Source of the DNA: a bacterium
Lineage (GTDB): Bacteria; Hydrothermota; Tepidihabitantia; B3-TA06
Length of the DNA stretch: 64,000 nt
NCBI GenBank assembly: GCA_012517375.1
Contig: JAAYVC010000037.1
Span: forward strand, 3,485 to 67,484
Reading direction: 5' to 3'
Shown here: in pieces, positions 3,310 to 31,591 of the stretch
How positions within the stretch are numbered: the first letter of the stretch is position 1
Layout of the letters: each line of letters starts with the position of its first letter
Made by a program: the position numbers and the translations under genes
Notes under the pieces: model-generated
The model's database searches: none
Told to the model about the DNA's origin: nothing
What the model saw: the letters and a program-made list of their open reading frames with translations, nothing else

Positions 3310-3421
3310 TATACTTGACAACGCTCCGAGAAAGAGTATATTTCATCTATCCCCAATCGTCCCGTTCATCGGGAGTGCCAGGGTCAAGCTTTTAAAAATG
3401 GTGATTTATGACTGATATGCG

Positions 3422-3442
3422 TGTGGATAACTTTGTGGATAA
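3422..3442 (+). promoter_or_regulatory. Two tandem DnaA boxes (TGTGGATAA x2, reverse complement of TTATCCACA) immediately upstream of dnaA
   Basis: Exact 9-mer TGTGGATAA at 3422-3430 and 3434-3442. Position is 35-55 bp upstream of the dnaA GTG start. Confidence 0.6.
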
Positions 3443-3475
3443 GTTTTTTATTTCGATGTCCGTGGAGGAGAACAA

Positions 3476-4798: not shown

Positions 4799-5029
4799 AC
4801 CGCGATGTGGAAATACCTGTTAAAAACATGTGTCGATTATTGTGGGCAGCCCAGGCAAGAAGGATATTTTCAACATCTATCCCCCGAATTCTACAAACTT
4901 TTCAACAATTCTCTAGGAAAGTAAGTTGCACATGAAAGTTATTTATAATAAAATCCACTATTTCAACATTGACAACAACAACAACAAGAGTAAGATTCAA
5001 TTTATGAATGTTGCTGAATTAGAGGAGGA
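4799..5029 (+). other. AT-rich dnaA-dnaN intergenic region, candidate oriC/DNA-unwinding element
   Basis: 231-bp spacer markedly AT-rich relative to the flanks (tttataataaaatccactatttcaacattgacaacaacaacaacaag). Contains a partial DnaA-box-like ATCCAC. Confidence 0.35.
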
Positions 5030-6133
5030 ATGATGTGGTTTAAACTTGAAAGAAATCTTCTTGAAGAGTTAATCGAAAGGGTAGTACCCGTCATTCCGTC
5101 GCGTACACCCTATCCTATCATTCAAAACATCCTTTGCTCCACCGAGCACGGAAAACTCAGTTTTCTGGCGACCGATCTTGATATCTACGTCAAGACATGG
5201 ACTGTTCTGAAAGCCAAAGAAGAGTCAAAGATACTTCTTCCCGGAAGAAAACTCCTGGGCATCGTCAAAGAAAGCAACGCCGACGAGATGGAGTTCACAA
5301 GGGAGGAAAACAAGATAATAGTCAAGGCCGGCAGAAGCGTATTCAAGATGCCTATCCTCGACGCCGAGGAGTTTCCAAGAATGTTTGAGCTGCCTCAGGA
5401 AACAAGATTCAGCGTTGACGGCAAGGATTTGAGGCGAATATTCGAAGCGGTCGAGTTTGCGGTCTCCAAAGGCGAGGACAGACCTGCAATGACAGGCATT
5501 TACTGGGAGCTTAAGAACGAACGAAACAGGATGGTCGCCACCGACGGCCATCGCATGGCAGTGAGCGAGGATAAGAACAGCGTACCGAAGATAGAGGAGC
5601 GCTCGCAGATTCTTCCCACTAAGATATTCAACTTCTTCCCCAAGGAGATTGACGGTCCTATAGATGTTTCAATGGACAACACGAAGATAGGTCTCTCCTT
5701 CAACTCAACAGAGGTCGTCTCAAGACTCATCGAGGGACCGTATCCGGACTATGAAAAGGTCATACCCAAGGAGATAAAAAACGTTCTCACTGTCAGCCGG
5801 GAAGAGTTTACGTCCGCTCTCCGCAGGATGATGATCTTCACTAACCAGGTTACGCGGCAGATAAAGCTCGTTTTAGGAAAGAAGACTCTTGAGATATCGT
5901 CCTTCTCTCCAGAGGGAGAGGAGGCGCACGAGGAGTTGACCGCCAGCTACAAGGGCGAAAGCTTCGAGGTCGCCTACAATGGCTCCTATCTTCTCGATAT
6001 AATGCGCCATATCGAGACGGAAGACGTTGTATTCGACATAACGGGCGCGCTTTCTGCAGCGCTCATTCACGGTTCGGGCACAAAAGATGAGCAGGTCCGC
6101 TTCTATCTCTTGATGCCCATACTTCTCGATTAA
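5030..6133 (+). CDS. dnaN: DNA polymerase III beta sliding clamp
   Basis: 367 aa, strong SD GGAGGAA. Three-domain beta-clamp pattern with conserved MTGIYWE and RMVATDGHRMA motifs. Canonical dnaA-dnaN synteny. Confidence 0.9.
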   Translation: MMWFKLERNLLEELIERVVPVIPSRTPYPIIQNILCSTEHGKLSFLATDLDIYVKTWTVLKAKEESKILLPGRKLLGIVKESNADEMEFTREENKIIVKAGRSVFKMPILDAEEFPRMFELPQETRFSVDGKDLRRIFEAVEFAVSKGEDRPAMTGIYWELKNERNRMVATDGHRMAVSEDKNSVPKIEERSQILPTKIFNFFPKEIDGPIDVSMDNTKIGLSFNSTEVVSRLIEGPYPDYEKVIPKEIKNVLTVSREEFTSALRRMMIFTNQVTRQIKLVLGKKTLEISSFSPEGEEAHEELTASYKGESFEVAYNGSYLLDIMRHIETEDVVFDITGALSAALIHGSGTKDEQVRFYLLMPILLD

Positions 6134-6204
6134 AAGAAAAGCCTGAGCGGGATGCGGGCAGGGCGCAGTAAAGCATTGAGATTGTAGCACGAATAAGAAA
6201 AAAC

Positions 6205-6232
6205 TTGACACGATACTAATTTATTCTACAAT
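6205..6232 (+). promoter_or_regulatory. Sigma70-type promoter for tRNA-Leu (TTGACA-16-TACAAT)
   Basis: TTGACA at 6205-6210, 16-bp spacer, TACAAT at 6227-6232. The tRNA 5' end lies ~14 bp downstream. Confidence 0.45.
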
Positions 6233-6245
6233 TGAGTTTTGAATA

Positions 6246-6329
6246 GCCGAAGTGGTGGAATTGGCATACGCGGCGGACTCAAAATCCGTTGGAGCTTGCT
6301 CCGTGAGGGTTCGACTCCCTCCTTCGGCA
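6246..6329 (+). tRNA. tRNA-Leu (anticodon CAA)
   Basis: 7-bp acceptor stem GCCGAAG/CTTCGGC plus discriminator A. Anticodon loop CTCAAAA. Long variable arm (GGAGCTTGCTCCGTGA) typical of Leu. T-arm GGGTTCGACTCCC. CCA not encoded. Confidence 0.85.
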
Positions 6330-6338
6330 TAAAAAAAT

Positions 6339-6371
6339 CCCACGTAAAAACACTATGTGTTTTTACGTGGG
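6339..6371. terminator. Perfect 15-bp-stem hairpin (CCCACGTAAAAACAC-tat-GTGTTTTTACGTGGG) downstream of tRNA-Leu
   Basis: Perfect inverted repeat with 3-nt loop, preceded by an A7 run. Could act as a terminator in either orientation. Same CCCNCGTAAAAA palindrome family as the hairpin at 34130. Confidence 0.4.
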
Positions 6372-6404
6372 GACCCTTGAAATAAATATTCCGGAGGATT
6401 ATAA

Positions 6405-7070
6405 ATGCCTATTCTTAGAGATGAAGACAAGAAATACATCACTGAACAATTCAACGCGAAGTTAACGAGTCAAGTAAAGATACTGCTTTTTTCACAGAAT
6501 CTTGAATGCGAGTACTGCAAGCCTACGGAAGAGATAATGACCGAGCTCGCATCACTCTCGGAAAAGCTCACGCTCGATATACGCAATCTCGCAATAGAAA
6601 GCGAGGATGCGAAGAGCTACGGCGTCGACAAGGTGCCTGCCGTAATCCTTCTCGGCGAAGGCGACAAGGATTACGGTATCAGGTTTTTCGGCGTACCCTC
6701 GGGCTACGAGTTTTCCACCCTTCTCGCGGACATAATAGACGTATCGAACGGAAAATCCGATCTCGATGCCGAGAGCGTATCAAAGATACAATCGGTTGCC
6801 TCGCCTGTGGACATTAAGGTCTTCGTGACTCCGACCTGTCCCTACTGCCCTGCCGCAGTCCGCGCCGCGCACAAGATTGCAATGGCAAATCCCGGGTACG
6901 TCCGCGCGGAGATGATAGAATCCGTCGAGTTCCCTCATCTTGCAAACCGCTATGCGGTGTACGGCGTTCCGAAAACGATAATTAACGAGAAGACCCAGTT
7001 CGAGGGCGCATTGCCTGACCAGGCCGTTGTCGAGCATGTGCTGAGCGCTCTTAAAGTATCGGGCGCATAA
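6405..7070 (+). CDS. Glutaredoxin-like protein disulfide oxidoreductase (two thioredoxin-fold units)
   Basis: 221 aa. Two redox motifs, CEYC (N-terminal unit) and CPYC (C-terminal unit, VFVTPTCPYCPAAV). Architecture matches PDO-type proteins. Sits directly upstream of trxB. Confidence 0.7.
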   Translation: MPILRDEDKKYITEQFNAKLTSQVKILLFSQNLECEYCKPTEEIMTELASLSEKLTLDIRNLAIESEDAKSYGVDKVPAVILLGEGDKDYGIRFFGVPSGYEFSTLLADIIDVSNGKSDLDAESVSKIQSVASPVDIKVFVTPTCPYCPAAVRAAHKIAMANPGYVRAEMIESVEFPHLANRYAVYGVPKTIINEKTQFEGALPDQAVVEHVLSALKVSGA

Positions 7071-7080
7071 GCGAGGCATT

Positions 7081-8043
7081 ATGGAGTTTTCGTTCTCGGT
7101 CGAGGCACCCAAGTCAACTGACGTCAAGGATTCATACGACGTCGTCATAATAGGCGGAGGACCTACAGGACTCACGGCAGCCATCTACTCCGCTCGCGCC
7201 AGCCTCTCCACCCTCGTCGTGGAGAAGGGAGTGACAGGCGGTCTTGTAACCGCGACTGAATTGATTGAGAACTACCCCGGATTTCCTGAAGGCGTTCAAG
7301 GCTCCGAACTCGGACGCTCGATGGAAGCTCAGGCTAAACGATTCGGCGCCGAGGTCTTCCACGGAGAACCGGGGATTGTAGATCTCACCTCAAGCCCTAA
7401 ACTCCTTAAAATAGGCGGAAAGGACGTCAAGGCGAGAGCGGTTATAGTCGCAACAGGCACCACCCATAAGAAGATAGGGGTCCCGGGAGAACGTGAGCTC
7501 GCAGGGCGCGGTGTTTCCTACTGCGCCACATGCGACGGACCATTCTTCAAGGATAAGGAAATAGTTGTCGTAGGCGCCGGAAACTCAGGCGTGCAGGAAT
7601 CGGTCTTTCTCGCCAAGTACGCATCAAAAATCACCATAGTCGAATTCCTGCCTACAATACAGGCCGAGCGCATACTCGTAGACCGTTTTCTTGCCACAGG
7701 CATCGGCTCGTTCATCACCAATCACGAGGTCGTAGCAATAGAAGGTTCGGAAAGCGTGACGGGCGTCCGCATTCGTTCGCGGGAGTCCGGGGAGGAGGAG
7801 AAGATTCCCTGCTCGGGCGTATTCATCTGGGTAGGTCTTCTTCCAGAGACCGGATCCTTCAAAGAGACGCTCGAGCTCGATAAATTGGGCTTCATAAAGA
7901 CCGATGAACATCTCAGAACGAGCATCGAAGGCGTTTGGGCCGCAGGCGACGTTGTTTCAGGAGCCACGCGCCAGATTGCCGCGGCAGTCGGTTCGGGTGC
8001 AACGGCAGCGATTGAGGTCGAACACTACCTCGCTTCGCGTTAA
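7081..8043 (+). CDS. trxB: Thioredoxin-disulfide reductase
   Basis: 320 aa. FAD-binding GGGPTGLTAAIY. Redox-active CATC (SYCATCDGPFF). NADPH-binding VVGAGNSG. Confidence 0.85.
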   Translation: MEFSFSVEAPKSTDVKDSYDVVIIGGGPTGLTAAIYSARASLSTLVVEKGVTGGLVTATELIENYPGFPEGVQGSELGRSMEAQAKRFGAEVFHGEPGIVDLTSSPKLLKIGGKDVKARAVIVATGTTHKKIGVPGERELAGRGVSYCATCDGPFFKDKEIVVVGAGNSGVQESVFLAKYASKITIVEFLPTIQAERILVDRFLATGIGSFITNHEVVAIEGSESVTGVRIRSRESGEEEKIPCSGVFIWVGLLPETGSFKETLELDKLGFIKTDEHLRTSIEGVWAAGDVVSGATRQIAAAVGSGATAAIEVEHYLASR

Positions 8044-8068
8044 CATCTTAATAATTGAGAGGATAAAC

Positions 8069-8638
8069 ATGAGATTTATCAACATTTTACTGGCTTCCCT
8101 TCTCGGGGCGGTCATACTCGCAGGATGCGGGGTAAACGGAAAGCCTAAGTCCGCTCAAAACACGGGCGATGTCACGGATGCCGCGTCCGGCTCGCAGTCC
8201 GGGGATGCGGAGAAGGAAAGAAAACTTGCTCCGGATTTCACGCTCGCAGATATGAACGGTAAAGCCCACACCCTGTCCAAGTACCAGGGCAAGGTCGTCC
8301 TTATCGATTTCTGGGCGTCCTGGTGCCCGCCGTGCAGGGCTGAGATTCCCCACCTCGTAAAGATTTACGAAAAGTATAAGAGCGACGGACTCGTAATCCT
8401 AGGGGTAGGGCTTGATAAAAAGGAAAATCTCGCTACAATCTCAAAGGAACTCGGAATAACCTACACCGTTCTCGTTGACGACCGGAGCGTAACGGGCAGG
8501 CTCTACGACGTAAAGGGGATTCCGAGAACGCTCATGCTCGACAGGAAGGGAAGAATAGCAGCCGACCACACCGGCTTCGCCGAAGGGATGGAATCGGAGC
8601 TGGAAGGCGAAGTCAAAAAGCTGCTTAGCGAGAAATAG
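8069..8638 (+). CDS. TlpA/ResA-like thiol:disulfide oxidoreductase lipoprotein
   Basis: Start chosen at the ATG at 8069 (MRFINILLASLLGAVILAGCG, lipobox LAGC). The track ORF starts at 7904 but overlaps trxB. Thioredoxin motif WASWCPPC. Confidence 0.75.
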   Translation: MRFINILLASLLGAVILAGCGVNGKPKSAQNTGDVTDAASGSQSGDAEKERKLAPDFTLADMNGKAHTLSKYQGKVVLIDFWASWCPPCRAEIPHLVKIYEKYKSDGLVILGVGLDKKENLATISKELGITYTVLVDDRSVTGRLYDVKGIPRTLMLDRKGRIAADHTGFAEGMESELEGEVKKLLSEK

Positions 8639-8933: not shown

Positions 8934-10418
8934 ATGAAGGAACTATCTCCAAAGTGGGTAGGAGTAATGGTCGGTTCAGCCGCTGTTGCGGCGTTCGGAA
9001 TAGGACTGCTTCTTGCCGGCGTCCTGGGAATATTCCCCCGCGCCCAGGCACAGGAGCAGCCTCCCCAGAATTTATCAGGCATAGCGGCCGGCGACAGCCC
9101 GTTCGTGAAGATAGCGGACGAGGTTATCCCGGCTGTCGTCAACATTGGTACAACCCGCAAGGTCAAGGTCAGCGGCGTTTTCCCCTTCGATGATCCCATC
9201 TTTAGGCGCTTCTTCGGCGACGAGATGCCGGATGCTCCCCGCGAACAGACTCGGCAGAGTCTTGGTTCGGGCGTCATCTTCAGGCAGGACGGCTACATTA
9301 TAACCAACAACCACGTTGTCGAGGGCGCGGACGATATAACGGTCACCATGCACGACGGCAGGACATTCGCGGGCAAGCAGGTCAAGCTCATAGGCCGGGA
9401 CCCGCAGACCGATATAGCGGTAATAAAGATTCAGGTCTCAGAAGAGCTGCCCGTTGCAAGGCTCGGCAACTCAGACTCCATCCGCGTCGGAGACTGGGCA
9501 GTCGCTATCGGAAATCCTTACGGACTGGAGGGTACGCTCACAGTAGGAGTCATCTCCGCCAAGGGACGCACGAACCTTCCCCTGCCCTCCCAGCAGCGCT
9601 ACCAGAATTTCATCCAGACCGACGCTGCAATCAATCCAGGCAACTCAGGCGGACCCTTGTGCAGCATAAAGGGCGATGTGATAGGTATAAACTCAGCAAT
9701 TACGTCGCCTTACGGAGGAAACGTGGGCGTCGGCTTCGCAGTGCCCGTCAACATGGCCAAAAGCGTAGCCACCCAGCTTATAGATAAGGGAAAGGTAGAG
9801 CGCGGTTATCTCGGGATTCTTCCCCAGGAGATCACGTCCGACATGCGCAAGGGGCTCGGTCTCAAGGAAAAGGGCGGCGTGCTCGTCGGCAACGTTGTGC
9901 AAGGGACGCCTGCCGAGAAATCCGGGATACGCGACGGCGACGTGATTCTCGCCCTCAACGGAAAAGAAGTCGCAACGGTCGAGGAGTTCCGCGAGCGTGT
10001 CGCTGCGATGTCTCCAGGGACGACGGTCGATTTCAAGGTCTGGCGCAACGGTTCGACCATGAGCGTTAAAGCCAAGCTCATATCCTATCCCGAAGAGGAA
10101 CTCAGCCAGAAGAGCACGCAAGACAACATCGAAGACGCTCCGTTCGGCATAATGGTGCGTTCGCTCTCCTCCTCCGATATGGAGAATCTTGAAATCTCCT
10201 CGGGCGCGCTCGTCGTTGACGTCCGAAGCGGATCGGCCGCCGAGAGAGCCGGAATAAAGCCGGGCGACGTCATTCTCAAGATAGACAACCGCCAGGTAAC
10301 GGACGCCTCCTCGTTCGCCAAGGCGGCAGAAGAGTTAAAGAAATCGGGCAAGGAAGTGATGCTTGTCCAGGTATACCGCAGCGGACAGCGCTTCTTCATC
10401 ACCATGCGCCAGGAGTAA
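8934..10418 (+). CDS. htrA: Periplasmic serine endoprotease HtrA/DegP/DegQ family (trypsin-like domain + 2 PDZ)
   Basis: 494 aa. Signal/TM N-terminus. Catalytic triad contexts TNNHVV (His), GNSGGPL (Ser) and D in DIAVIKI. Two PDZ domains (GVLVGNVVQGTPAEKSGI.., GALVVDVRSGSAAERAGI..). SD AAGGAGG. Confidence 0.9.
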   Translation: MKELSPKWVGVMVGSAAVAAFGIGLLLAGVLGIFPRAQAQEQPPQNLSGIAAGDSPFVKIADEVIPAVVNIGTTRKVKVSGVFPFDDPIFRRFFGDEMPDAPREQTRQSLGSGVIFRQDGYIITNNHVVEGADDITVTMHDGRTFAGKQVKLIGRDPQTDIAVIKIQVSEELPVARLGNSDSIRVGDWAVAIGNPYGLEGTLTVGVISAKGRTNLPLPSQQRYQNFIQTDAAINPGNSGGPLCSIKGDVIGINSAITSPYGGNVGVGFAVPVNMAKSVATQLIDKGKVERGYLGILPQEITSDMRKGLGLKEKGGVLVGNVVQGTPAEKSGIRDGDVILALNGKEVATVEEFRERVAAMSPGTTVDFKVWRNGSTMSVKAKLISYPEEELSQKSTQDNIEDAPFGIMVRSLSSSDMENLEISSGALVVDVRSGSAAERAGIKPGDVILKIDNRQVTDASSFAKAAEELKKSGKEVMLVQVYRSGQRFFITMRQE

Positions 10419-10455
10419 GGAGTTATGTAAATGATGAAACGGAGGGGTTGAAACA

Positions 10456-11970
10456 ATGCTCAGATGGGCGTCTGACCGCTCGTTATCAAGGTACTTCAAG
10501 CAGATAATGCGGTATCCGCTCTTAACGCGCGAGGAGGAAGAGGAATACGCGATTCGCGCGAAGCTCGGAGACCTGATAGTCGAGGTAGAAGCTAAGCCCG
10601 CAAAAACGAGAGCGGTCCTCGTGCGTGCGATAAAAAAGGCAGGCGCCGGAGGCGTTTTAAGACTCGCCGTGCAAAGAAGCGGAAAGAGGATGGAAGTAAC
10701 CCTTTCTCTTCCCGCCTTGATTCCTACATATATGGCGAATACCGACAAGGCAATCCCGATTCTCGGAATGAAGCTGCTTGAACTCACAGAGCTGAACCAG
10801 GCTCAAAAAAGCTTTTTTGCAGATATCAAAGCCGGACTCGTCATAACCGAGATAGCCCCGGATTCCCCGGCGTCAAGCGCCGGTCTCATAGACTACAATA
10901 TGGAGGCCCGGGATAAGCTGATAGTGCACAATCTGCGCTGGGTCGTTACAATCGCAAAGCAGTATCAAAACAGGGGCCTGGCTCTTTCGGAACTCATAAA
11001 CGAAGGAAATCTCGGCCTTATACAGGCGGTCTCGAAGTTCGACGAGGCCCGCAAGACCCGTTTGACTACTTATTCAAACTGGTGGATACGCTACTACATA
11101 GTCACCGCACTCGCATCCAGGCACCTCATAAAGCTGCCCATTAAGATGCGGAATCTTGCCAAGAAGATACGCGACAGGTACGGCGTACTCGCTCAGCGGT
11201 TCGGAAGAACGCCGTCCATTGAAGAGCTCGCCCGCGAGCTCGAGGTCTCGCCCGAGGAGGTGTCATGCGCGTTCGACTGCGGTGTCGCGGAGCTATCCAT
11301 TGACGCCCTGCCCTTTGACGACTCGAAGGTTACATTCGAGGAGGTTCTAAAGGATACAACATCTCCCCTGCCCACAGAGCTTTCCGGCAAGGAGCAGATA
11401 GAGCGAGACGTTCGCTCGTCGCTTTACGAATCCCTTGCGGACAGGGAGCTGTATGTCGTTACCAGGCATTTCGGAATCCCTCTGCCCCAGGGCCGCTTCA
11501 ACATGAAGAGGATCTCCGAAATATTCGGCCGCCCGAAAGACCAGATTCAGCAAATACTCTGCGCTGCATCGAGAAAGCTTCTTTCAAGACTGCGCCGCAG
11601 CCTGGGCGATGAGGGACTCAGGCAGTACGCCAAGCTCTCGACAGCGCAGTCCGGGATGCTTCCGGAACTCCTGAAGAAGACGGATGATGCTTCGAGAAAA
11701 GCGGTTTTGAAGATAATGAGCAAGGTCGTGAGAAACATGCCCGCCATTCTTTCCGATCAGTTCGAGGGTTTCGAACTGATTGAGTCGGAGGTGATGGCTT
11801 TGTTCTGGAGTTTCGGACCGACGCAGCCCGAGCTGAATCTTCGTGAAATCGGCGACCTTCTGGGCATCTCCCGCGAAGCCGCACGCCAGATTAAGGAGCG
11901 TTCAATTAAAAAACTAAAGAAGTATCTTAGGCCGCAGGCGTTCGACAGTTTCTTTCGGGAGGCGATATGA
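10456..11970 (+). CDS. Sigma-70 family RNA polymerase sigma factor with a PDZ-like insertion between regions 1.2 and 2 and an apparently duplicated region 4
   Basis: Region 1.2 (LSRYFKQIMRYPLLTREEEEEYA). Region 2 (LIVHNLRWVVTIAKQYQNRGLALSELINEGNLGLIQAVSKFDEARKTRLTTYSNWWIRYYI). Region 3. Region 4 HTH (YVVTRHFGIPLPQGRFNMKRISEIFGRPKDQIQQILCAASRKL). Then a second region-4-like HTH (LNLREIGDLLGISREAARQIKERSIKKLKK). The ~110-aa insert contains PDZ-like motifs (GLVITEIAPDSPASSAGL; GDLIVEVE..GGVLRLAVQRSGKRMEVTL). Confidence 0.75.
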   Translation: MLRWASDRSLSRYFKQIMRYPLLTREEEEEYAIRAKLGDLIVEVEAKPAKTRAVLVRAIKKAGAGGVLRLAVQRSGKRMEVTLSLPALIPTYMANTDKAIPILGMKLLELTELNQAQKSFFADIKAGLVITEIAPDSPASSAGLIDYNMEARDKLIVHNLRWVVTIAKQYQNRGLALSELINEGNLGLIQAVSKFDEARKTRLTTYSNWWIRYYIVTALASRHLIKLPIKMRNLAKKIRDRYGVLAQRFGRTPSIEELARELEVSPEEVSCAFDCGVAELSIDALPFDDSKVTFEEVLKDTTSPLPTELSGKEQIERDVRSSLYESLADRELYVVTRHFGIPLPQGRFNMKRISEIFGRPKDQIQQILCAASRKLLSRLRRSLGDEGLRQYAKLSTAQSGMLPELLKKTDDASRKAVLKIMSKVVRNMPAILSDQFEGFELIESEVMALFWSFGPTQPELNLREIGDLLGISREAARQIKERSIKKLKKYLRPQAFDSFFREAI

Positions 11971-12145
11971 GAACAGCGTTTCTTTCGGGCTGCTTATGCA
12001 AACGTCTGGGCGACCCGAGACGGGTCGCTGCCGCGATTATTGACATGGGACTCTGTAAATCTATAATCAATCCTTGAATTCTGAAGGACTCTTCGGGTCC
12101 TCGTTTGAAATTTAATTCATAAAATCGGAAGGAGTCAGACAGCAT

Positions 12146-13528
12146 ATGAAGAAGTTCTTCAATTGGTTAGATAAAACCTTCGTGAAGCCTGTCGAGGAAT
12201 CAAAGATGTCCCTCGGCGCCTTCATTCTTATCGCCGCAGGCTACATACTCGCGCGCAATCTCTTTGAAGGCGCATTCGAATCCCTTCACCTCATAGGACT
12301 CTCCTCTATCACGCTCTTCGGGATCGAGGAGATGTTCCTGCATCTCATGTTCTCCTGGCTTTATTTCTTCATGATAGTAGCCATTCTCCTGAAATTTACG
12401 ACCGGACACGATATGAAGAAGATAACGCGCGTACTCCTGGCCTACTCCTTCATAGTGCTTATACCGCCGTTTATCGATTTCCTCTTTATGCCCGGCGGTT
12501 TCAGGCTTGCCTACCCGACCGATATAAGCATAGTCGGAAAGGTGATATGGTCTATGTTGAGGCCCTGGATACTCTTTAACCCGCGCATGGTCTATGAATA
12601 CTCGGCAAAGATCCCTTACGGAGGCTCCCCCGGTATGATAATAGAGGTCTTCGTCGCGTTGATTCTGATAATCGTTTACTCGTGGATCCGCACGCCTTCG
12701 CTGAAGCGCAGGATTATAGCCGTTCTGCTCACTCCTGCAATTCTTGCGGCGACCATAATCATAGCCGGCGGAGCGCAGGTGCTCGTATCCAATATCCCCG
12801 GAGACCCCCTTACCGGAAAATCGGTATACTTCACGGGCGGCCTCATAACATCCGCAACGCGCAAATACGCCCTCATCGTCTTAATCCCCTTCCTTATCGT
12901 TCTCTTCATCGGTCTTCTGCTCTACAACAAGCAAAAGACATTAAAGCTTGTAAAATCGATAGACCCTTTCAGCGCAATCCTTGCCGCCGTCGCCGCAGGC
13001 GCGGGCTTCCTTTTTGCATGGCTCGGTCTCAAGGACATACTTACCGGCGTTCCGAGAAGCCCTTTCGACTACGTTGCCCTTTTCGGTCTCTTAGTTATGG
13101 GCGCTGCGTCAGCCGTTACAAGGCTTTATCTTTCGCAAAGCTGGTCTGAGAAGAACTCCGAGGAGGATAAGAAAACCTTCCGGCGCGGGGCGTGGGGCAT
13201 GTTCATACTCACGCTGGCGCTCGGATGGAGTCTGGGGTACGCAAACCTGTTCATACTGCTCGTCTCGCTCGTATTCGGGCTGGTGCTGGCCGTACCTCCG
13301 CTGCGTCTCGAACGCTGGAGCGTGCCGTCATCCCTTGGCAACGGACTGGCCGTTTTCATGCTGGTCTATTGCGGATACTCGCTTTTCGCGACCGAGCGAA
13401 CCTTCAGTATTTTCCCATGGCAGCTCTCAATAGTCGTATTTGCTACACTGTGGCTTTCTTTCCTGGTCCGCGAACTCATAATAAGACATAAACCAAAGCG
13501 TATCCAGACGGGGGAAGCAGCCCAATGA
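12146..13528 (+). CDS. Polytopic integral membrane protein (>=10 predicted TM segments), unknown function
   Basis: 460 aa, highly hydrophobic throughout. Overlaps the next gene by 4 bp (operon with TPR protein). Confidence 0.5.
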   Translation: MKKFFNWLDKTFVKPVEESKMSLGAFILIAAGYILARNLFEGAFESLHLIGLSSITLFGIEEMFLHLMFSWLYFFMIVAILLKFTTGHDMKKITRVLLAYSFIVLIPPFIDFLFMPGGFRLAYPTDISIVGKVIWSMLRPWILFNPRMVYEYSAKIPYGGSPGMIIEVFVALILIIVYSWIRTPSLKRRIIAVLLTPAILAATIIIAGGAQVLVSNIPGDPLTGKSVYFTGGLITSATRKYALIVLIPFLIVLFIGLLLYNKQKTLKLVKSIDPFSAILAAVAAGAGFLFAWLGLKDILTGVPRSPFDYVALFGLLVMGAASAVTRLYLSQSWSEKNSEEDKKTFRRGAWGMFILTLALGWSLGYANLFILLVSLVFGLVLAVPPLRLERWSVPSSLGNGLAVFMLVYCGYSLFATERTFSIFPWQLSIVVFATLWLSFLVRELIIRHKPKRIQTGEAAQ

Positions 13529-14706
13529 ACGAAACGAATACAAAAATCCCGCCGCTCATTCTGATAATCGGTTCAGCGGCCGCGCTTGCCATGGCGGTTC
13601 TTCCGCCGCTCGTTCTCGGGGCCGCATTCTTATGGTTTATTACGCCTTTTCTCGGTCTCCTTCTTCTTGCCGGAGTGTTCGCGCGGCGTTCATGGCTCGC
13701 TTGCATCTCGGCAACATTGGAGCTTGCCGCTCTGGTTGCCGTACTTGCCAGGTTTCCGCTTTCTTTGTCCGCGGAGCAAACAAGGAACCTTTATTCCACG
13801 GGCCAGGTAGTAAAAGCCGACGTATACTACCTCCGCGCCGACTACGTAAACGCCCTTGCCGCTTACAGGCAAAGCATTTCATCGGGGTTAGAAGACCCCT
13901 GGCTTTACTACCAGATGGGAAAGTGCTACAACTACCTTGGTCAGAGCCAGCCAGCGTTTGAGACGTTCGTCTATGTAGACAAATATCCGCAAAAGGTGCC
14001 TCAGGAGTTGCTCAGGCTGGATTTTGCCCTGGCATGCATCAAGTCGAATTTCGAGGAGGAGGGAGCCAATGCATTCAAGGATGCGATAAAGTCGAACTAT
14101 AATCCAGGGTACTGCTACTATCAATTGGGCGTTTACTATACATTCAAGAGGGACCCCGATAAGGCTGAGGAGATGTTTTCAAACGCGCACTTTCTAGGCT
14201 ACCAGCGCTCGGAATGCTCATCCCTTCTCGGCGGGATAGCCGAAGGCCGCAAGGACTACGCAAAAGCGGAGAAGCTCTACAGGAGAGGCTTAAGGGAAAG
14301 CTTCGAGAACCTCACGCTATACGCAAAACTCGGCAGCCTTCTTCACCGCACGGGAAGGAATGACGAAGCGGTGTCAATCCTGCTCGACGGGTTCAATCTC
14401 TCCGCTTTGGTTCGGTACAATCCGCGCGCCGCCGCGATGATACTCAACAACCTGGGATTCGTTTACGCTGACCAGCGCAAGACAGGTCAGGCTATCATGG
14501 CGTTCAAGCAGTCGATACACACGGACGCAGGCTTCATGGAGTCCTACTACAATTTAGCCTACGTCTTAATGCAGGAAAAAAGGAACACCGAGGCGCTCGA
14601 GATTCTCAGGATGGCGCTTGATAAAGACCCGAACGATGCAACCGCCAGGGAGATGATAGCGCAGATCCTCGGATCAGGTAAGCCCCAGGATCAAGGAACA
14701 AGATAA
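13525..14706 (+). CDS. Membrane-anchored TPR-repeat protein
   Basis: 393 aa. N-terminal TM helices followed by multiple TPR-like repeats (AYRQSISSGLEDPWLYYQMGKCYNYLGQ.., AIMAFKQSIHTDAGFMESYYNLAYVLMQEKRNTEALEILRMAL). Confidence 0.55.
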   Translation: MNETNTKIPPLILIIGSAAALAMAVLPPLVLGAAFLWFITPFLGLLLLAGVFARRSWLACISATLELAALVAVLARFPLSLSAEQTRNLYSTGQVVKADVYYLRADYVNALAAYRQSISSGLEDPWLYYQMGKCYNYLGQSQPAFETFVYVDKYPQKVPQELLRLDFALACIKSNFEEEGANAFKDAIKSNYNPGYCYYQLGVYYTFKRDPDKAEEMFSNAHFLGYQRSECSSLLGGIAEGRKDYAKAEKLYRRGLRESFENLTLYAKLGSLLHRTGRNDEAVSILLDGFNLSALVRYNPRAAAMILNNLGFVYADQRKTGQAIMAFKQSIHTDAGFMESYYNLAYVLMQEKRNTEALEILRMALDKDPNDATAREMIAQILGSGKPQDQGTR

Positions 14707-14855: not shown

Positions 14856-16223
14856 TCACACTTTGTCATGTTTCATCTTGGGAAAGAATACTTGCTTTCG
14901 ATCGTCAACCACCGCCGCAACCACCGGGCTCTTCAGGATATCGTCCCAGATGAAGCCGAGCCCGTGCCTGGCGAACCGCTCCCTTATGAGTCTCGCAAAA
15001 CCCTTGAAGTAGATGTCTCTAGGCCTGTTAAGGTAAGCGATAATCGCATTGAGAAGGTATCTCATTTGAGCGGCGGAGATATGCGGATGGTTCCATACGA
15101 GGTGCTTTGCGCTGTAGTGACGGTAGTTTGTGTCCGTTATCCCGTAACGCATCCGGATGTCGTCCCATAAGGGCGTTTTTGGGAAGGGGGTCAGCACGTT
15201 AACCTGATGGGCGTCGAAACCCGCCTTCTTCACAAGCGCCGCGTCCTCCAGCGTCTGCTCTGCGGTCATGCCCTCGTAGCCTATCATATAGTAGACCATG
15301 CGGTACATATCGCCCTTCTCCCTCGTCTTTCGGGAAAACTCCATAATCTCCTCAACCTTCTGCTTCTTGTCTATGCTGTCCAGGGCGCCCTGCTTCATCG
15401 TCTCAAGACCAATAACAGGAAAACGCAGCCCCCGCTCGTACCAGGTTTCAAGATTTCTCAAGTAAATGCCTGCCCGCGATTGCGACCACCAGCGCAGGCC
15501 GTAGCGGGCAAAAAGTTCAGAAAGCTTGTCCGCGTAGGCAGGGAACGTTCCGAAGAGCTCGTCCATAACGAACACGTCCTTTATTCCAACCTTGCGATAG
15601 TGCTTCACGACCCGCTCGACGCTCTCGAAGTTGACTGTAAACCGTCTGTCCTCATATGCAGGCGTCTGGCAGAACGTGCACCTGAAGGGGCAGCCGCGCT
15701 CGGTGTACAAAAGACCCATCATCAGATAAGGAATTGAGCCCGGCTTGAACCTGAAAGGCATCATCAAGGAGGGATGTTCTACCTCCTCGTCCCGTACCCT
15801 GTATCCGAACGCCTGCGCCACCTGATCCTCTGCAGCGCCCGAAAAGACCCTGTCGCAAAATTCGGCAACGTGTCCGTCAAGCGCGCCGTGTCCGCCAGCC
15901 CATATCTCGCGAACCCCGTGCCTGCGAGCCTCATCCGCCATGCGCTCCACCTCGGCTATCTCGTTCTGAAAAAAGGAGAAGCCTACAACGTCCCAGCCCT
16001 CCTTGAGTCTCTCGACATATTCAGGCCACATAGGATACTCGAGTATCTCTATCTCAGGCACGTTCTGCTTCAGGAAGCGCAGCCCGAAGCCTATGCGTCT
16101 TGGATTAGAGATTCGTGGAACCCCGTAAACGTTCTCGCCTATGTAATCGAGATAATCGTCTGCGAAACGCCTGTAGGCGTTGCATAAAAGCACCTTTGGT
16201 GCAGTCTTCAATGCTCCTCTCAC
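14856..16223 (-). CDS. B12-binding-domain radical SAM protein (class B rSAM), paralog 1 of 4
   Basis: 455 aa. N-terminal B12-binding-like domain (~150 aa). rSAM cluster motif ERGCPFRCTFCQTP (CxxxCxxC). ~60% identical to the 17884-19212 paralog. Confidence 0.75.
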   Translation of the reverse strand: MRGALKTAPKVLLCNAYRRFADDYLDYIGENVYGVPRISNPRRIGFGLRFLKQNVPEIEILEYPMWPEYVERLKEGWDVVGFSFFQNEIAEVERMADEARRHGVREIWAGGHGALDGHVAEFCDRVFSGAAEDQVAQAFGYRVRDEEVEHPSLMMPFRFKPGSIPYLMMGLLYTERGCPFRCTFCQTPAYEDRRFTVNFESVERVVKHYRKVGIKDVFVMDELFGTFPAYADKLSELFARYGLRWWSQSRAGIYLRNLETWYERGLRFPVIGLETMKQGALDSIDKKQKVEEIMEFSRKTREKGDMYRMVYYMIGYEGMTAEQTLEDAALVKKAGFDAHQVNVLTPFPKTPLWDDIRMRYGITDTNYRHYSAKHLVWNHPHISAAQMRYLLNAIIAYLNRPRDIYFKGFARLIRERFARHGLGFIWDDILKSPVVAAVVDDRKQVFFPKMKHDKV

Positions 16224-16425
16224 GGTATCAGTCTAAAAATCCTGTATGCTAATCTTCTTCCTGCTCTTTATACATTCTACACCGTGTGCTTGCGCTGTCA
16301 AGACCTTGTTTGAGGTTATTCCTCAAGACTTACGCTGAGGATTGTCCGGGATTTGATCTTATATCATCTTCTTTGCACGTTAGATTGGTAAAAAACCTCG
16401 CCACCGTCTCTCGCACTCTCGTGTT

Positions 16426-17784
16426 TTAAGAACCGAGCCTCTTAAAGAAGATCTGCTTGCGGTCGTCGTACAGGCTGGCTGCAAGAGGTCCCTTGATGAG
16501 GTCGCGCCACACGAACTCGAAGCCTTTTTCGCGCAATCTCTCCCGAACGATCCGGGAGAAGGGTCGTATGTATGCATCGAATGGATTGTTGAGATAATTG
16601 ATGAGCGAAGCGCGCAGATAAAGCATCTGGGAGGGCGTTATCTCGGGATGGTTCCATACGAGGTGGCCGGTATCGAAATCCCTGTAATTATCCTTGATTA
16701 TCCCGTACTTTGAATCAAGCTCCTTCCAGAGAGGGGTCCCGGGAAAGGGAGTGAGTACGCTTACCCCGTGCGCATCGAAGCCCATGCGCTTGAGCTGTAC
16801 TGCGTCCTGGATGGTCTCATCCCGGCTCATGTTCTCGTAGCCTATCATCCAGTCCACTATCCTGTAGATGCCGGGTTTTTCCTTCGTTCTTTCAGCATAT
16901 TCCTCAATCTCCGCGGTCTTCTGGCGCTTCTTGATGATATCCAGAGACTTTTGAACGGTAGACTCGAGGCCTATCATGGGAAAGCGCAACCCCTTCTCGT
17001 ACCACTCGTCGAGATGGTCAAGGATAAGGGATATGCGCGACTGGGCCCACCATCGAAACTTGTATCTCGCGAACATCCCGGTGAGTTTTTCGGAAAGCCG
17101 GGGATTGTACCCGAAGAGTTCGTCCGCGATGAAAAGATCGGTAAGTCCCTTGCTCCGGTAGTGCTTAATGACGCGCTCGATGCTTTCTATATTTATGGGC
17201 AGGGGTCTGGTGTCAAGAGCGGGCGTCTGGCAAAAGCTGCATTCGAAAGGACACCCGTGCTGCGTGTACAGGAGGCCAAGCGTCAACAGAGGTATGTTGC
17301 CGGGTTTTATCGTACCCGGCCAGCACATTACCGGATGCTCTATCGAGTCGTCCGGGATGCGGTATCCGAAAACCCTGGCTACGGCGTCCTCTGAGGCTCC
17401 AGTAAAAACCCTGTCCACTATCCGGGGGATTGCAGGATTCAGCGCTCCGTACCCTCCCGCCCACAGCTCGCGGATTCCATGACTGCGCGCCTCTTCAGCC
17501 ATCCTCGCTATCTCCGCTATCTCGTTCTCGAAAAAAGTGAAGCCCACCACGTCCCAACCCTCCCTGAGTCTCTCGACATATTCAGGCCACATCGGATACT
17601 CGAGTATCTCGACCTCGGGAACGTTCTGCTTTAAGAACCTCAGGCTCATCGAGACCCGGCGGGGCGAGGCAACCCGGGGAAGGCCGAAGACCTGGCCTCC
17701 GATTACATCCCAGTAGTCGTTGCGGAATCGCCTGTAGGCCGTACACAAAAGAACCCGGGGGTTAGCGCTCAAAGCGCCTTTCAC
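16426..17784 (-). CDS. B12-binding-domain radical SAM protein, paralog 2 of 4
   Basis: 452 aa. Motif QHGCPFECSFCQTP. Colinear with the other three paralogs. Confidence 0.75.
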   Translation of the reverse strand: MKGALSANPRVLLCTAYRRFRNDYWDVIGGQVFGLPRVASPRRVSMSLRFLKQNVPEVEILEYPMWPEYVERLREGWDVVGFTFFENEIAEIARMAEEARSHGIRELWAGGYGALNPAIPRIVDRVFTGASEDAVARVFGYRIPDDSIEHPVMCWPGTIKPGNIPLLTLGLLYTQHGCPFECSFCQTPALDTRPLPINIESIERVIKHYRSKGLTDLFIADELFGYNPRLSEKLTGMFARYKFRWWAQSRISLILDHLDEWYEKGLRFPMIGLESTVQKSLDIIKKRQKTAEIEEYAERTKEKPGIYRIVDWMIGYENMSRDETIQDAVQLKRMGFDAHGVSVLTPFPGTPLWKELDSKYGIIKDNYRDFDTGHLVWNHPEITPSQMLYLRASLINYLNNPFDAYIRPFSRIVRERLREKGFEFVWRDLIKGPLAASLYDDRKQIFFKRLGS

Positions 17785-31532: not shown

Positions 31533-31591
31533 TTCCTCCTCTTTTACGGTTCAGTTATAGTATAATTTAGGTTGCGGATGTCAATCCCCCC
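31533..31591 (-). promoter_or_regulatory. Promoter/5'UTR cassette (copy 1): TTGACA-16-TACTAT plus AGGAGG SD, identical to the cassette at 32572-32630
   Basis: 59 bp identical between the two copies. On the minus strand reads GGGGGGATTGACATCCGCAACCTAAATTATACTATAACTGAACCGTAAAAGAGGAGGAA then ATG. Confidence 0.5.

Follow-up and report, generated by a model that had tools for sequence, protein, structure and literature searches.

The DNA analysed here (the window, 64 kb in length) carries a gene for a sigma-70 family protein directly downstream of an htrA gene. The string trx-trxB-tlpA-htrA-sigma, whose genes were identified with Pfam, is conserved and lies beside dnaA-dnaN. Only 37 nt separate the stop codon of htrA from the start of the sigma gene, and no terminator-like site was found between them. 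The following features were assigned:

6205..6232, + strand: promoter-like sequence TTGACA-N16-TACAAT, 5′ of trx-trxB-tlpA-htrA-sigma (consensus scan, 11/12 positions)
8934..10418, + strand: htrA, encoding a trypsin-like protease domain followed by PDZ1 and PDZ2 (Pfam; synteny at loci L001, L002, L003 and L084-L089)
9936..10256, + strand: segment of htrA coding for aa 335-441 (107 aa; C-terminal half of PDZ1, linker and N-terminal half of PDZ2), bounded by two 'GDVIL' motifs (hmmsearch, sequence)
10443..10449, + strand: Shine-Dalgarno-like GGAGGGG, 6 nt 5′ of the ATG (read from the sequence)
10456..11970, + strand: sigma-70 family gene of group-1/2 type without region 1.1, 504 aa (ORF, Pfam, NCBIfam, Foldseek)
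10480..10572, + strand: region 1.2 (aa 9-39), closing with the sigma 'GD' turn, which doubles as a PDZ 'GDxI' motif (Pfam PF00140, alignment with PDZ-less relatives)
10567..10893, + strand: insert of 109 aa (aa 38-146) at the position of the sigma non-conserved region (NCR), a predicted circularly permuted HtrA-type PDZ (re-ordered Pfam, AF2, Foldseek, PDB profile search)
10567..10710, + strand: first half of the insert (aa 38-85), corresponding to a PDZ C-terminal half with GDxI strand, long helix and two strands (Pfam, DSSP)
10711..10761, + strand: variable linker (aa 86-102) from the putative old PDZ C-terminus to the old N-terminus (alignment A3, pLDDT)
10762..10893, + strand: second half of the insert (aa 103-146), corresponding to a PDZ N-terminal half and ending in 'SPAxxAGL' (alignment A3, HtrA PDZ motif match)
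10918..11121, + strand: region 2 (aa 155-222; Pfam PF04542, alignments)
11164..11376, + strand: region 3 (aa 237-307; Pfam PF04539)
11431..11598, + strand: first region-4 module, r4a (aa 326-381), with a well-conserved 4.1 helix, LADRELYVVTRHFG, and a degenerate HTH, GRPKDQIQQIL (weak Pfam, hhalign, NCBIfam)
11599..11781, + strand: helical linker between r4a and r4b (aa 382-442; AF2 helices, alignment)
11782..11931, + strand: second, canonical region-4 module, r4b (aa 443-492), with invariant R473, E474, R477 and Q478 (Pfam, alignments)
11932..11967, + strand: C-terminal tail PQAFDSFFREAI, also present in PDZ-less relatives (alignments)

In the 6.2-kb scan, four promoter-like sites were found against 4.1 expected, which is not above chance.

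Pfam placed region 1.2, a half-match to PDZ_2, region 2, region 3 and region 4 in this order along the protein. All sigma regions scored above their gathering cut-offs: 33.4 bits against 22 for PF00140 (region 1.2, aa 9-39), 51.2 against 24 for PF04542 (region 2, aa 155-222), 33.0 against 25.3 for PF04539 (region 3, aa 237-307) and 52.5 against 24.1 for PF04545 (region 4, second copy r4b, aa 444-489). The top 50 Foldseek matches of the full-length model were sigma-A or sigma-S chains in RNAP complexes (E about 1e-10, probability 1.00). Region 1.1 is absent, as only eight residues precede region 1.2 in the Pfam assignment; the primary sigmas of the FCB group also lack it. No match to Trypsin or Trypsin_2 was found in the sigma with Pfam, and the protease domain is confined to the upstream gene. 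Reading the sigma sequence by eye, we spotted no obvious hydrophobic signal or membrane segment, and the PDZ insert is therefore presumably cytoplasmic. The best NCBIfam matches were RpoD/SigA and RpoS models, all below cut-off (the best, TIGR02997, with 183 bits against 384.5; RpoD_Cterm with 164 against 354). However, the Bacteroidota short sigma P0047, which we take to be of the kind that serves as primary sigma in that phylum, also misses the RpoD cut-off (250 against 354), so these cut-offs do not discriminate in this part of the tree.

Comparison with PDZ-less relatives delimited the insert as 109 aa between the 'GD' turn that follows region 1.2 and the 'EAR..L..NLRW' of region 2.1. The PDZ_2 match on aa 36-85 covers only profile positions 31-80 of 80, the C-terminal half, and in the whole protein it reaches 26.8 bits against a cut-off of 27. 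When the two halves of the insert were re-ordered in silico, PDZ_2 scored 42-52 bits in four out of four proteins, with matches starting at positions 1, 2, 8 or 12 and running to 76-80, compared to half-profile matches of 27-38 bits in the native order of the same four. For the window insert taken alone, the score rose from 29.4 to 42.3 bits. The cut-off is thus passed only when the permutation is taken into account. The order of secondary structure elements is non-canonical, with the C-terminal half preceding the N-terminal half (Pfam, profile searches), as the preliminary description of this DNA had proposed. The domain search and structure prediction named there as checks pointed the same way: besides the PDZ_2 half-match, AF2 folded the isolated insert with confidence (pLDDT 86, pTM 0.81, lower pLDDT in the linker aa 86-102; DSSP of the first half E40-44, H52-62, E67-74 and E77-84), and its Foldseek matches were almost all PDZ domains (HtrA, DegP, DegQ, RseP, MamP and similar). 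These alignments covered either ~47-53 columns at an rmsd of 1.2-1.6 Å, or ~110 columns at 16-20 Å spanning PDZ1 to PDZ2. Foldseek compares folds by sequential alignment only and is not permutation-aware; half-domain or PDZ1-to-PDZ2 alignments are the pattern expected of a permutant. A profile search of the PDB gave the same picture: insert positions 4-110 aligned with DegP 305-401 and DegQ 282-382, whereas the single-PDZ proteins DegS and HhoA matched positions 4-58 only.

The second half of the insert aligns with the 'LG(I/V)...G.lV..V..gSPA..AG' motif of HtrA PDZ domains. This half opens with the carboxylate-binding loop, kept as L103-G104-M105 (nt 10762-10770), the corresponding columns L71, G72 and M73 of alignment A3 being invariant or ≥90% conserved, and the linker is the least conserved, length-variable part of that alignment. 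From sequence and model, the insert is predicted to be a circularly permuted HtrA-type PDZ with both ends at the AGL-x-x-GD loop, and these ends would lie near enough together to fit a tight turn. We know of no natural PDZ permutant that is cut here, and the searches run for this analysis did not bring one up either.

The C-terminal part of the protein holds two copies of region 4. With hhalign, the two aligned in register as homologues (50 columns, probability 87.5%, E 3.6e-6). NCBIfam RpoD/RpoS models align as far as about aa 381, the end of r4a, and r4b aligns with region 4.2 of canonical sigmas. A normal region 4 followed by a second HTH had been described before; the two copies stand, but their roles are reversed, since r4a is the degenerate one (Pfam E 0.034, 14 bits; matched in 11 of 17 family members, best 5.9e-6) and the C-terminal copy the canonical one (52.5 bits). 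Nor could the idea of two −35-recognition HTHs be upheld. The R-E-x-x-R-Q contact residues occur in r4b only, and the 'GRPKDQIQQIL' segment of r4a is variable and acidic across the family. We propose that r4b is the −35 reader, while r4a and the linker, for which AF2 predicted helices H396-407, H411-427 and H429-436, would form an accessory module. In one sub-branch, the linker contains an extra Rho_N/SAP-like motif.

The architecture is real and conserved in uncultured WOR-3/TA06 bacteria. We found ~25 orthologue clusters with full coverage and 58-79% identity in independent WOR-3/TA06/Stahlbacteria assemblies from Logan, JGI, ENA and NCBI (58-100% over the 25 clusters). All 25 carry PF13180 together with the sigma domains, the ORFs of all orthologues are uninterrupted, and the layout is identical at all five PDZ-sigma loci looked at, the window included. 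Genomes that encode the protein include a TA06 bin with TKJ42766.1 and WOR-3 contigs of 166 kb with P0010 and P0021. A chimeric mis-assembly, a recent recombination with htrA or a frameshift that fused a separate HTH gene to the C-terminus had been considered, as htrA adjoins the sigma gene and the insert looks like PDZ sequence. The full-length architecture shared by 25 independent clusters rules out an assembly artefact, and the intact orthologue ORFs rule out a frameshift fusion; moreover, PDZ-less relatives already hold the second region 4 in a single ORF. A nucleotide alignment of the insert with htrA, suggested earlier as a check for recent duplication, revealed none: with htrA and all other window DNA as subjects, blastn at word size 7 gave chance matches only (best E 0.77 against htrA), and the insert and the neighbouring HtrA share 24-25% pairwise identity in BLASTP. 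This excludes recent recombination, and the probability we leave to an artefact of any of these kinds is negligible. As Pfam, alignments, AF2, hhalign and Foldseek agree on a sigma-70 protein with a PDZ-fold module at the NCR position and two region-4 modules, we hold with high confidence that the architecture, the permutation and the region-4 homology are jointly correct.

Relatives from sister lineages form a stepwise series. P0029 is a canonical sigma of 295 aa, P0026-28 (~380 aa) have the double region 4 without PDZ, and the PDZ family follows; each of these genes directly follows htrA. Outside the PDZ-sigma clade, 388-396-aa sigmas including P0095 (labelled Thermoanaerobaculia), P0098 and P0114 have the tandem region 4 as well. 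We found no description of double-region-4 relatives without PDZ in the literature, and this arrangement appears to be undescribed. More distantly, htrA was found directly upstream on the same strand at 14 of 80 FCB-group short-sigma loci. We take short FCB-group sigmas next to htrA to be rpoD. In Porphyromonas gingivalis, htrA is PG0593 and rpoD is PG0594 (PMC2637884). Because PDZ-less sister lineages and FCB short sigmas also adjoin htrA, the linkage between htrA and the sigma gene predates the PDZ. The same adjacency, together with the lack of any signal or membrane segment seen by eye, counts against the envelope-stress sensing put forward in the preliminary description. Proximity to htrA does not tie the PDZ to envelope stress, and we judge such a role unlikely.

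Is this sigma the primary sigma of its lineage? The best relatives outside the family are short FCB-group sigmas with 35-40% identity and the JGI label 'RNA polymerase primary sigma factor', and no other sigma-70 gene was found within the 64-kb window. Between the genes of the window, near-perfect TTGACA-N16/17-TATAAT-type sites are ~14-fold enriched, in keeping with the R-E-x-x-R-Q that r4b conserves; one such site, TTGACA-N16-TATAAT, lies at 12040-12067. Since the sigma series lies directly downstream of htrA, like rpoD in many FCB-group bacteria, the window sigma is probably the primary sigma of the lineage and an orthologue of the short FCB RpoD. Region 2.4 counts against this assignment. 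Here the family has 'WWIRYYIV' in place of the usual 'WWIRQAI', and the alignments show Q437 replaced by Y and T440 by V (E. coli sigma-70 numbering), which we take to be positions that read −12 and which depart from group 1.

The deviating region 2.4 and the missed RpoD/RpoS cut-offs would instead suit an alternative stress sigma of group-2-like type. Its PDZ would sense proteotoxic signals in the cytoplasm, for example tagged proteins or hydrophobic C-termini that have become exposed, as a cytoplasmic analogue of DegS-type sensing, and switch on a proteostasis/redox regulon. HtrA-type PDZ domains, such as those of DegS and DegP, are sensors of C-terminal peptides, and the conserved gene string without a terminator before the sigma gene suggests co-expression with thioredoxin, thioredoxin reductase, a TlpA-like redoxin and HtrA. 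However, the PDZ-less FCB short sigmas and sister lineages have the same htrA neighbour, the string lies beside dnaA-dnaN and the nearest outgroup consists of short FCB sigmas that JGI labels as primary. Hence, we regard a stress sigma as unlikely.

With a primary sigma as the favoured assignment, we turn to the source of the insert. Both halves had been likened to PDZ2 of the upstream HtrA. The likeness to HtrA stood, but the best match is the PDZ1-PDZ2 junction: insert profile positions 6-109 are collinear with aa 335-441 of the window HtrA at 40.3 bits (hmmsearch), whereas PDZ2 reached only 10.8 bits. An exhaustive search among 1.84 billion representatives gave multi-PDZ proteins as its best non-sigma matches, about half of them aligned across a PDZ-to-PDZ junction (best stretch, profile positions ~4-110). 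A local re-search of 153 proteins (149 top library matches and four HtrAs) returned a junction-spanning match in 123. The sigma-adjacent HtrAs of PDZ-less sister lineages scored 57.1, 50.3 and 48.4 bits over the junction; FCB HtrAs reached 20-36 bits and DegP 41-42. Identities were 24-27% to neighbouring HtrA junctions, 22% to FCB HtrAs and up to 30% to unrelated stand-alone tandem-PDZ proteins. Profile scores thus favour the sigma-adjacent HtrAs of sister lineages as donors, but pairwise identities do not separate unrelated tandem-PDZ proteins from them. Because the insert has no nucleotide similarity to the adjacent htrA, any transfer from that gene must be ancient. A plausible origin is that a segment spanning a PDZ1-PDZ2 junction, perhaps that of htrA, was captured long ago, and a duplication-then-truncation route fits the matches to tandem-PDZ junctions. 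That the adjacent htrA itself was the donor may be the case, at somewhat less than even odds from the sequence comparisons.

Our best explanation, comprising orthology, order of steps, donor and docking, has as a whole a probability of roughly 0.5. The sigma would be orthologous to the short FCB RpoD, which has ~290 aa and lacks region 1.1, and would have been elaborated in steps. A tandem duplication of region 4 would have come first, after which r4a kept the 4.1 helix and lost the DNA-contact residues, and r4b kept the −35-reading HTH and the C-terminal tail. Later, a segment of ~107 aa from a tandem-PDZ protein, comprising the C-terminal half of a first PDZ and the N-terminal half of the PDZ that follows it, would have entered the 'GD' turn between regions 1.2 and 2.1, with the adjacent htrA as the most economical donor. 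The captured segment would fold as a single circularly permuted PDZ on the outer face of sigma domain 2, where other sigmas have their NCR. There it could act as a protein-docking module for the C-terminal tail or a beta-hairpin of a lineage-specific regulator or RNAP subunit. Docking, which presupposes that the PDZ binds a ligand, is the role we favour, albeit tentatively.

No other part of the protein evolves as fast as the PDZ insert, whose function may therefore be under loose constraint. Towards the 79%-identical orthologue, identity is 98% in regions 2-3, 62% in the helical linker and 50% in the insert; synonymous sites are saturated in this comparison (pS about 0.75), and only the differences in pN between segments are usable. 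Within the family, insert identity is only 31-52%. Such rates agree with a passive filler, in which the permuted PDZ is a compact lineage-specific NCR with a vestigial groove and no peptide ligand, for example bracing sigma-2 against the beta-prime clamp or upstream DNA. NCRs of different phyla are structurally unrelated and often dispensable in vitro. On the other hand, the PDZ fold is kept in all 25 clusters, and the motifs that form the PDZ binding site, the L-G-M loop and 'SPA..A(G/D)L', have stayed (nearly) unchanged in an otherwise drifting sequence. We therefore consider a passive role rather unlikely, and a docking module remains our preferred reading.

One candidate ligand lies in the protein itself. 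Every PDZ-bearing member has a conserved C-terminus with a hydrophobic last residue (...FFRxA[V/I/L]-COOH). Bound by the PDZ, the tail could tie r4b to sigma domain 2 in free sigma and mask DNA binding until core RNAP is bound, which would provide a stand-in for the missing region 1.1. However, a similar tail occurs in PDZ-less relatives and hence did not arise as a ligand for the PDZ, and AF2 predicted a helix (H493-503) instead of an extended peptide. Moreover, PQAFDSFFREAI is presumably homologous to the tail of ordinary group-1 sigmas, such as 'PSRSEVLRSFLDD' of E. coli sigma-70. Given the tail of the PDZ-less relatives, one purpose-evolved for the PDZ is unlikely, and auto-regulation of this kind seems quite improbable.

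The most far-reaching reading would be that a WOR-3/TA06 housekeeping sigma gained its NCR by capturing the PDZ1-PDZ2 junction of the neighbouring htrA, that the new permutant still binds C-terminal peptides and thereby gates or targets global initiation, and that the duplicated sigma-4 offers a second, non-DNA-binding docking surface. We consider it a long shot that all of this holds. If it did, the peptide signal could come from a dedicated activator, through its tail, or from damaged or tagged proteins, through their C-termini, and the sigma would have a ligand-sensing domain of its own. Group-1/2 sigmas are usually regulated by separate proteins such as anti-sigmas, Crl, RbpA and GrgA, and to our knowledge none with an integrated peptide-recognition domain has been known. 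In the literature searched (PDZ or NCR insertions in sigmas, two copies of region 4, WOR-3 sigmas), we found no description of a PDZ-bearing double-region-4 sigma. A PDZ at the exact surface where other lineages dock regulators would represent a different wiring of signals into initiation, and the sigma wired in this way may be the primary one of an uncultured lineage. The locus would furthermore be a natural example of domain insertion enabled by circular permutation of a mid-array segment, and of two sigma-4 modules that arose by duplication and then divided the labour, with intermediate forms surviving at the same genomic position in sister lineages. A further question is how promoters with a 16-17 bp spacer are still read despite the ~115 additional aa that separate regions 3.2 and 4.

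Among known systems, the Bacteroidota/FCB short RpoD/sigma-A (~285-300 aa) has the same order of regions 1.2-2-3-4 without region 1.1, and its gene lies 3′ of htrA in many lineages, as here. It lacks the 109-aa PDZ insert, the second region 4 with its linker and the 'WWIRYYIV' of the window sigma. The Bacteroidota promoter consensus is TTTG / TAnnTTTG, in contrast to the TTGACA/TATAAT of the local promoter-like sites. The double-region-4 sigmas P0026-28 and those of 388-396 aa share r4a ('RHFG/LRHG ... GRPxxEI'), the helical linker and the canonical r4b with the window sigma, but have no insert at the 1.2/2.1 turn, which reads 'GDxEAR' in P0026.

With PDZ1-PDZ2 of HtrA/DegP/DegQ, which were among the top Foldseek matches, the insert shares the motifs GDxI, LG(I/M) and SPA..AG, and it is collinear with the C-terminal half of PDZ1, the linker and the N-terminal half of PDZ2 (E. 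coli DegP 305-401, window HtrA 335-441). Unlike these proteins, it would be one domain of swapped halves, without a protease domain and with identity of only 24-27%. The PDZ fold also tolerates an altered strand order in the permutation that separates bacterial HtrA/RseP-type from eukaryotic PDZ domains, although the cut point differs: the termini of the sigma insert lie in the AGL-x-x-GD loop, which leads from the short helix to the next strand.

Finally, the insertion point between regions 1.2 and 2.1 is that of the group-1 NCR in E. coli sigma-70 and in Chlamydia sigma-66, where it is the docking site of GrgA. A surface-exposed, lineage-specific role in interactions is probably common to this NCR and the insert. 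The folds are unrelated, since the NCR of E. coli consists of a ~245-aa helical domain and the insert matches PDZ domains almost exclusively. The docking of GrgA, RbpA and Crl on sigma NCRs or sigma-2 surfaces provides the model for the putative docking by the PDZ of the window sigma.

The gene of the PDZ-sigma is an uninterrupted ORF that starts 37 nt past the stop codon of htrA, with the ribosome-binding site GGAGGGG ahead of its start. The features of the locus are as follows.

Features of htrA and PDZ-sigma (window positions, then residues of PDZ-sigma)
8934-10418, + strand: htrA with two PDZ domains (Pfam)
10456-11970, + strand: PDZ-sigma, 504 aa (ORF reading)
aa 9-39: sigma-70 region 1.2 (Pfam)
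aa 155-222: sigma-70 region 2 (Pfam)
aa 237-307: sigma-70 region 3 (Pfam)
aa ~326-381: first region-4 module (r4a), its 4.1 helix, L-x-D-R-E-L-Y-V-V-x-R-H-F-G, being very strongly conserved
aa ~443-492: second region-4 module (r4b), Pfam region 4 at 52.5 bits, with invariant R473, E474, R477 and Q478
aa 444-489: the sole sigma-70 region 4 found by Pfam, far C-terminal

Pfam also placed PDZ_2 on aa 36-85, at 26.8 bits (cut-off 27); this match is confined to positions 31-80 of the 80-position profile. The NCBIfam models RpoD, SigA and RpoS aligned from ~aa 148 to ~381, although PDZ-sigma reached none of their cut-offs. Since these alignments extend to ~aa 381, a region-4-like stretch is already present N-terminal to the Pfam region 4. 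The PDZ-like insertion and the second region 4 noted in the preliminary description are both present.

The same description had considered a chimeric gene or an assembly artefact created by recombination with htrA. When searching 5.8 billion clustered proteins, we found 25 clusters with 58-100% identity across the full length (482-551 aa), except for one truncated cluster (364 aa, 73% coverage, without a region-4 match). PF13180 accompanies the sigma domains in the full-length clusters. The sequences stem from Logan, JGI, ENA and NCBI assemblies, the named members being WOR-3, Stahlbacteria and TA06, and the ORFs are continuous in all orthologues. Comparison of the insert DNA with htrA and with the remaining window by blastn gave chance-level matches only (best E 0.77), which speaks against a recent duplication; as protein, the insert is 24-25% identical to the neighbouring HtrA. 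An assembly artefact, a recent recombination with htrA and a frameshift fusion of two genes are ruled out by the 25 multi-source clusters, the blastn result and the unbroken ORFs.

Alignment with relatives lacking it delimits the insert to 109 aa (aa 38-146), placed exactly at the 'GD' turn that joins region 1.2 to the 'EAR..L..NLRW' of region 2.1. It represents a PDZ domain in circularly permuted order. In four proteins, we cut the insert in silico at the variable linker, exchanged the halves and reran Pfam. The native order matched half of the PDZ_2 profile (positions 33-80, 27-38 bits), whereas the swapped order matched nearly all of it in 4/4 proteins (start at 1, 2, 8 or 12, end at 76-80, 42-52 bits); the PDZ_6 and PDZ matches improved likewise. 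AlphaFold2 predicted the insert with a pLDDT of 85-91 over most of its length within the full protein and of 86 (pTM 0.81) alone, in the order strand, long helix, two strands, linker, strand, helix, strand, short helix. Domain searches and structure prediction thus both support a PDZ fold. Foldseek against the PDB returned PDZ domains almost exclusively, the few exceptions not described as PDZ including 9hmf, 4fgm and 3rle. Single PDZ domains (RseP, HhoA, S. pneumoniae HtrA, MamP) aligned over ~47-53 columns at an rmsd of 1.2-1.6 Å, and two-PDZ proteases (DegP, DegQ, H. pylori HtrA) over ~110 columns at 16-20 Å, a sequential aligner being forced there from PDZ1 into PDZ2. For the predicted model, this twofold pattern is what a permutant should give. 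Against PDB sequences, positions 4-110 of the insert profile aligned with DegP 305-401 and DegQ 282-382, while the match was limited to positions 4-58 for the single-PDZ DegS and HhoA and to positions 75-111 for HTRA2 and HTRA3.

To trace its origin, the insert profile was searched against 1.84 billion representatives. Among the 150 best matches listed, P0023 is the only sigma representative and all others are multi-PDZ proteins. In about half of these the best stretch spans the junction of consecutive PDZ domains, and a local re-search found a junction-spanning match in most of them; six that were checked are stand-alone tandem-PDZ proteins. Such matches fit the classical route to circular permutation, in which an internal segment of a tandem array is taken over. 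The HtrA of the window is collinear with the profile over aa 335-441 (40.3 bits), a stretch of 107 aa that equals G38-L144 of PDZ-sigma in length and has a 'GDVIL' motif at either end.

Scores of HtrA PDZ junctions against the insert profile
HtrAs adjoining PDZ-less sister sigmas (loci L086, L087, L002): 57.1, 50.3, 48.4 bits
HtrAs adjoining PDZ-sigmas (window, L001, L084): 37-40 bits
E. coli DegP and similar: 41-42 bits
FCB-group HtrAs adjoining rpoD: 20-36 bits

Pairwise identity of the insert is 22-27% to HtrAs versus up to 30% to unrelated tandem-PDZ proteins. Since these identities fail to single out htrA, we consider the neighbouring gene a plausible, not an established, donor, at somewhat less than even odds. 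Whatever the donor, the transfer is ancient.

The two region-4 modules are homologous: hhalign aligned the profiles of aa ~312-385 and ~436-504 in register across 50 columns (probability 87.5%, E 3.6e-6). The helix-turn-helix of r4a (GRPKDQIQQIL) is degenerate, being variable and acidic across the family, and r4a matches Pfam region 4 weakly (E 0.034 in PDZ-sigma; 11/17 members match). In r4b, the four invariant residues presumably correspond to the -35 contacts R584, E585, R588 and Q589 of E. coli sigma-70. The C-terminal tail RPQAFDSFFREAI, directly after r4b, corresponds to the group-1 sigma tail HPSRSEVLRSFLDD. In canonical sigmas, 4.1 aligns with r4a and 4.2 with r4b.

Relatives form a stepwise series: P0029 (295 aa) is canonical, P0026-28 (377-383 aa) possess two region-4 modules but lack the PDZ, and the PDZ family has both features. 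One sub-branch (543-551 aa; P0013, P0014, P0016, P0018, P0021, P0022, e.g. L089 6001-7632) carries in addition ~40 aa at aa ~445-487, ahead of r4b, with a Rho_N/SAP-like helix-extended-helix motif (isolated segment, Pfam Rho_N 25.5 bits, E 1.3e-5). The lineage has thus accreted modules repeatedly. P0095 (Thermoanaerobaculia by NCBI label), P0098 and P0114 (388-396 aa) share the double region 4 and its 'GRPxxEI' signature, in the order region 4.1, degenerate HTH, helical linker and canonical region 4, without PDZ. The doubling therefore either predates the PDZ insertion or is more widespread, and the tandem region 4 seems to define a wider, undescribed sigma sub-family with at least one member outside WOR-3.

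The whole series lies directly downstream of htrA, usually in the string thioredoxin-like, thioredoxin reductase, TlpA-like redoxin, htrA and sigma, which is conserved in related genomes and, both in the window and at L084, adjoins dnaA-dnaN. The context of dnaA-dnaN places the sigma locus beside a probable replication origin. In the window, 757-8638 holds hypF, dnaA, dnaN, a two-domain thioredoxin-like protein, thioredoxin reductase and a TlpA/AhpC-like redoxin. A small ORF without Pfam match lies between htrA and sigma in L088 (3089-3691, 200 aa) and L089 (5732-6001, 89 aa), touching or overlapping the sigma start; the window has none there. We also noted two adjoining ~450-aa radical-SAM proteins at 14856-17784(-), downstream of a TPR protein (13525-14706) and a polytopic membrane protein without Pfam match (12146-13528, 460 aa).

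Outside the family, PDZ-sigma is closest, at 35-40% identity, to sigmas of ~285-300 aa from Bacteroidota, Gemmatimonadota, Ignavibacteria and others, many of them labelled 'RNA polymerase primary sigma factor' by JGI. In 14/80 retrieved loci of these short sigmas, the next gene upstream encodes an HtrA homologue and has the same orientation; the 14 span Bacteroidia, Flavobacteriia, Calditrichota and Latescibacterota. The corresponding genes of Porphyromonas gingivalis are PG0593 (htrA) and PG0594 (rpoD) (PMC2637884). This gene neighbourhood is thus long established at the rpoD locus and predates the PDZ domain. It gives no sign that the PDZ ties the sigma to envelope stress, as had been proposed. 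A stress-sensing alternative sigma is a less likely reading of PDZ-sigma. No further sigma-70 family gene was found within the window. PDZ-sigma is probably the orthologue of FCB-group rpoD, and we put the probability that it is the primary sigma at roughly 0.6.

Near-perfect TTGACA-N16/17-TATAAT sites are ~14-fold denser in intergenic than in coding DNA of the window (24 in 11 kb versus 8 in 53 kb), with 16 bp as the commonest spacer among the clearest examples.

Examples of promoter-like sites
6205-6232, + strand
12040-12067, + strand
25067, - strand
27720, - strand
27748, + strand
39958, + strand
48388, - strand
50548, - strand
61250, - strand

Judging from these sequences, the host evidently uses a very consensus-like -35/-10 code; that of Bacteroidota differs from such sites. 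An identical 28-nt promoter-like sequence, TTGACATCCGCAACCTAAATTATACTAT, at 31584(-) and 32623(-), precedes the similar-sized ORFs 30774-31529(-) and 31790-32566(-), which suggests a recent tandem duplication of gene plus promoter. If PDZ-sigma reads the TTGACA/TATAAT sites, r4b would take the normal sigma-4 position and r4a with the ~60-aa helical linker would form an accessory loop-out.

We came across no account of a PDZ insert or a tandem region 4 in a sigma in the literature searched, and the few names that databases assign are non-specific ('sigma-70 family RNA polymerase sigma factor', 'RNA polymerase primary sigma factor', 'hypothetical protein'). The combination is apparently an undescribed architecture of the known sigma-70 family. 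The insert is the fastest-evolving segment of PDZ-sigma, as purely structural filler might be. Inserts of the family are 31-52% identical, while the carboxylate-binding-loop motif L103-G104-M105 and 'SPA..A(G/D)L' show no or almost no variation. Given these conserved binding-site motifs, the likeliest role of the PDZ would be that of a docking module for the C-terminal tail of a partner protein. Auto-inhibition through the sigma's own tail is less attractive, as PDZ-less relatives bear a similar tail. The PDZ would sit on the surface where other sigmas bear the non-conserved region, and docking there would resemble known regulators that bind on or beside this surface: GrgA on Chlamydia sigma-66, RbpA on actinobacterial sigma-A and Crl on domain 2 of sigma-S.
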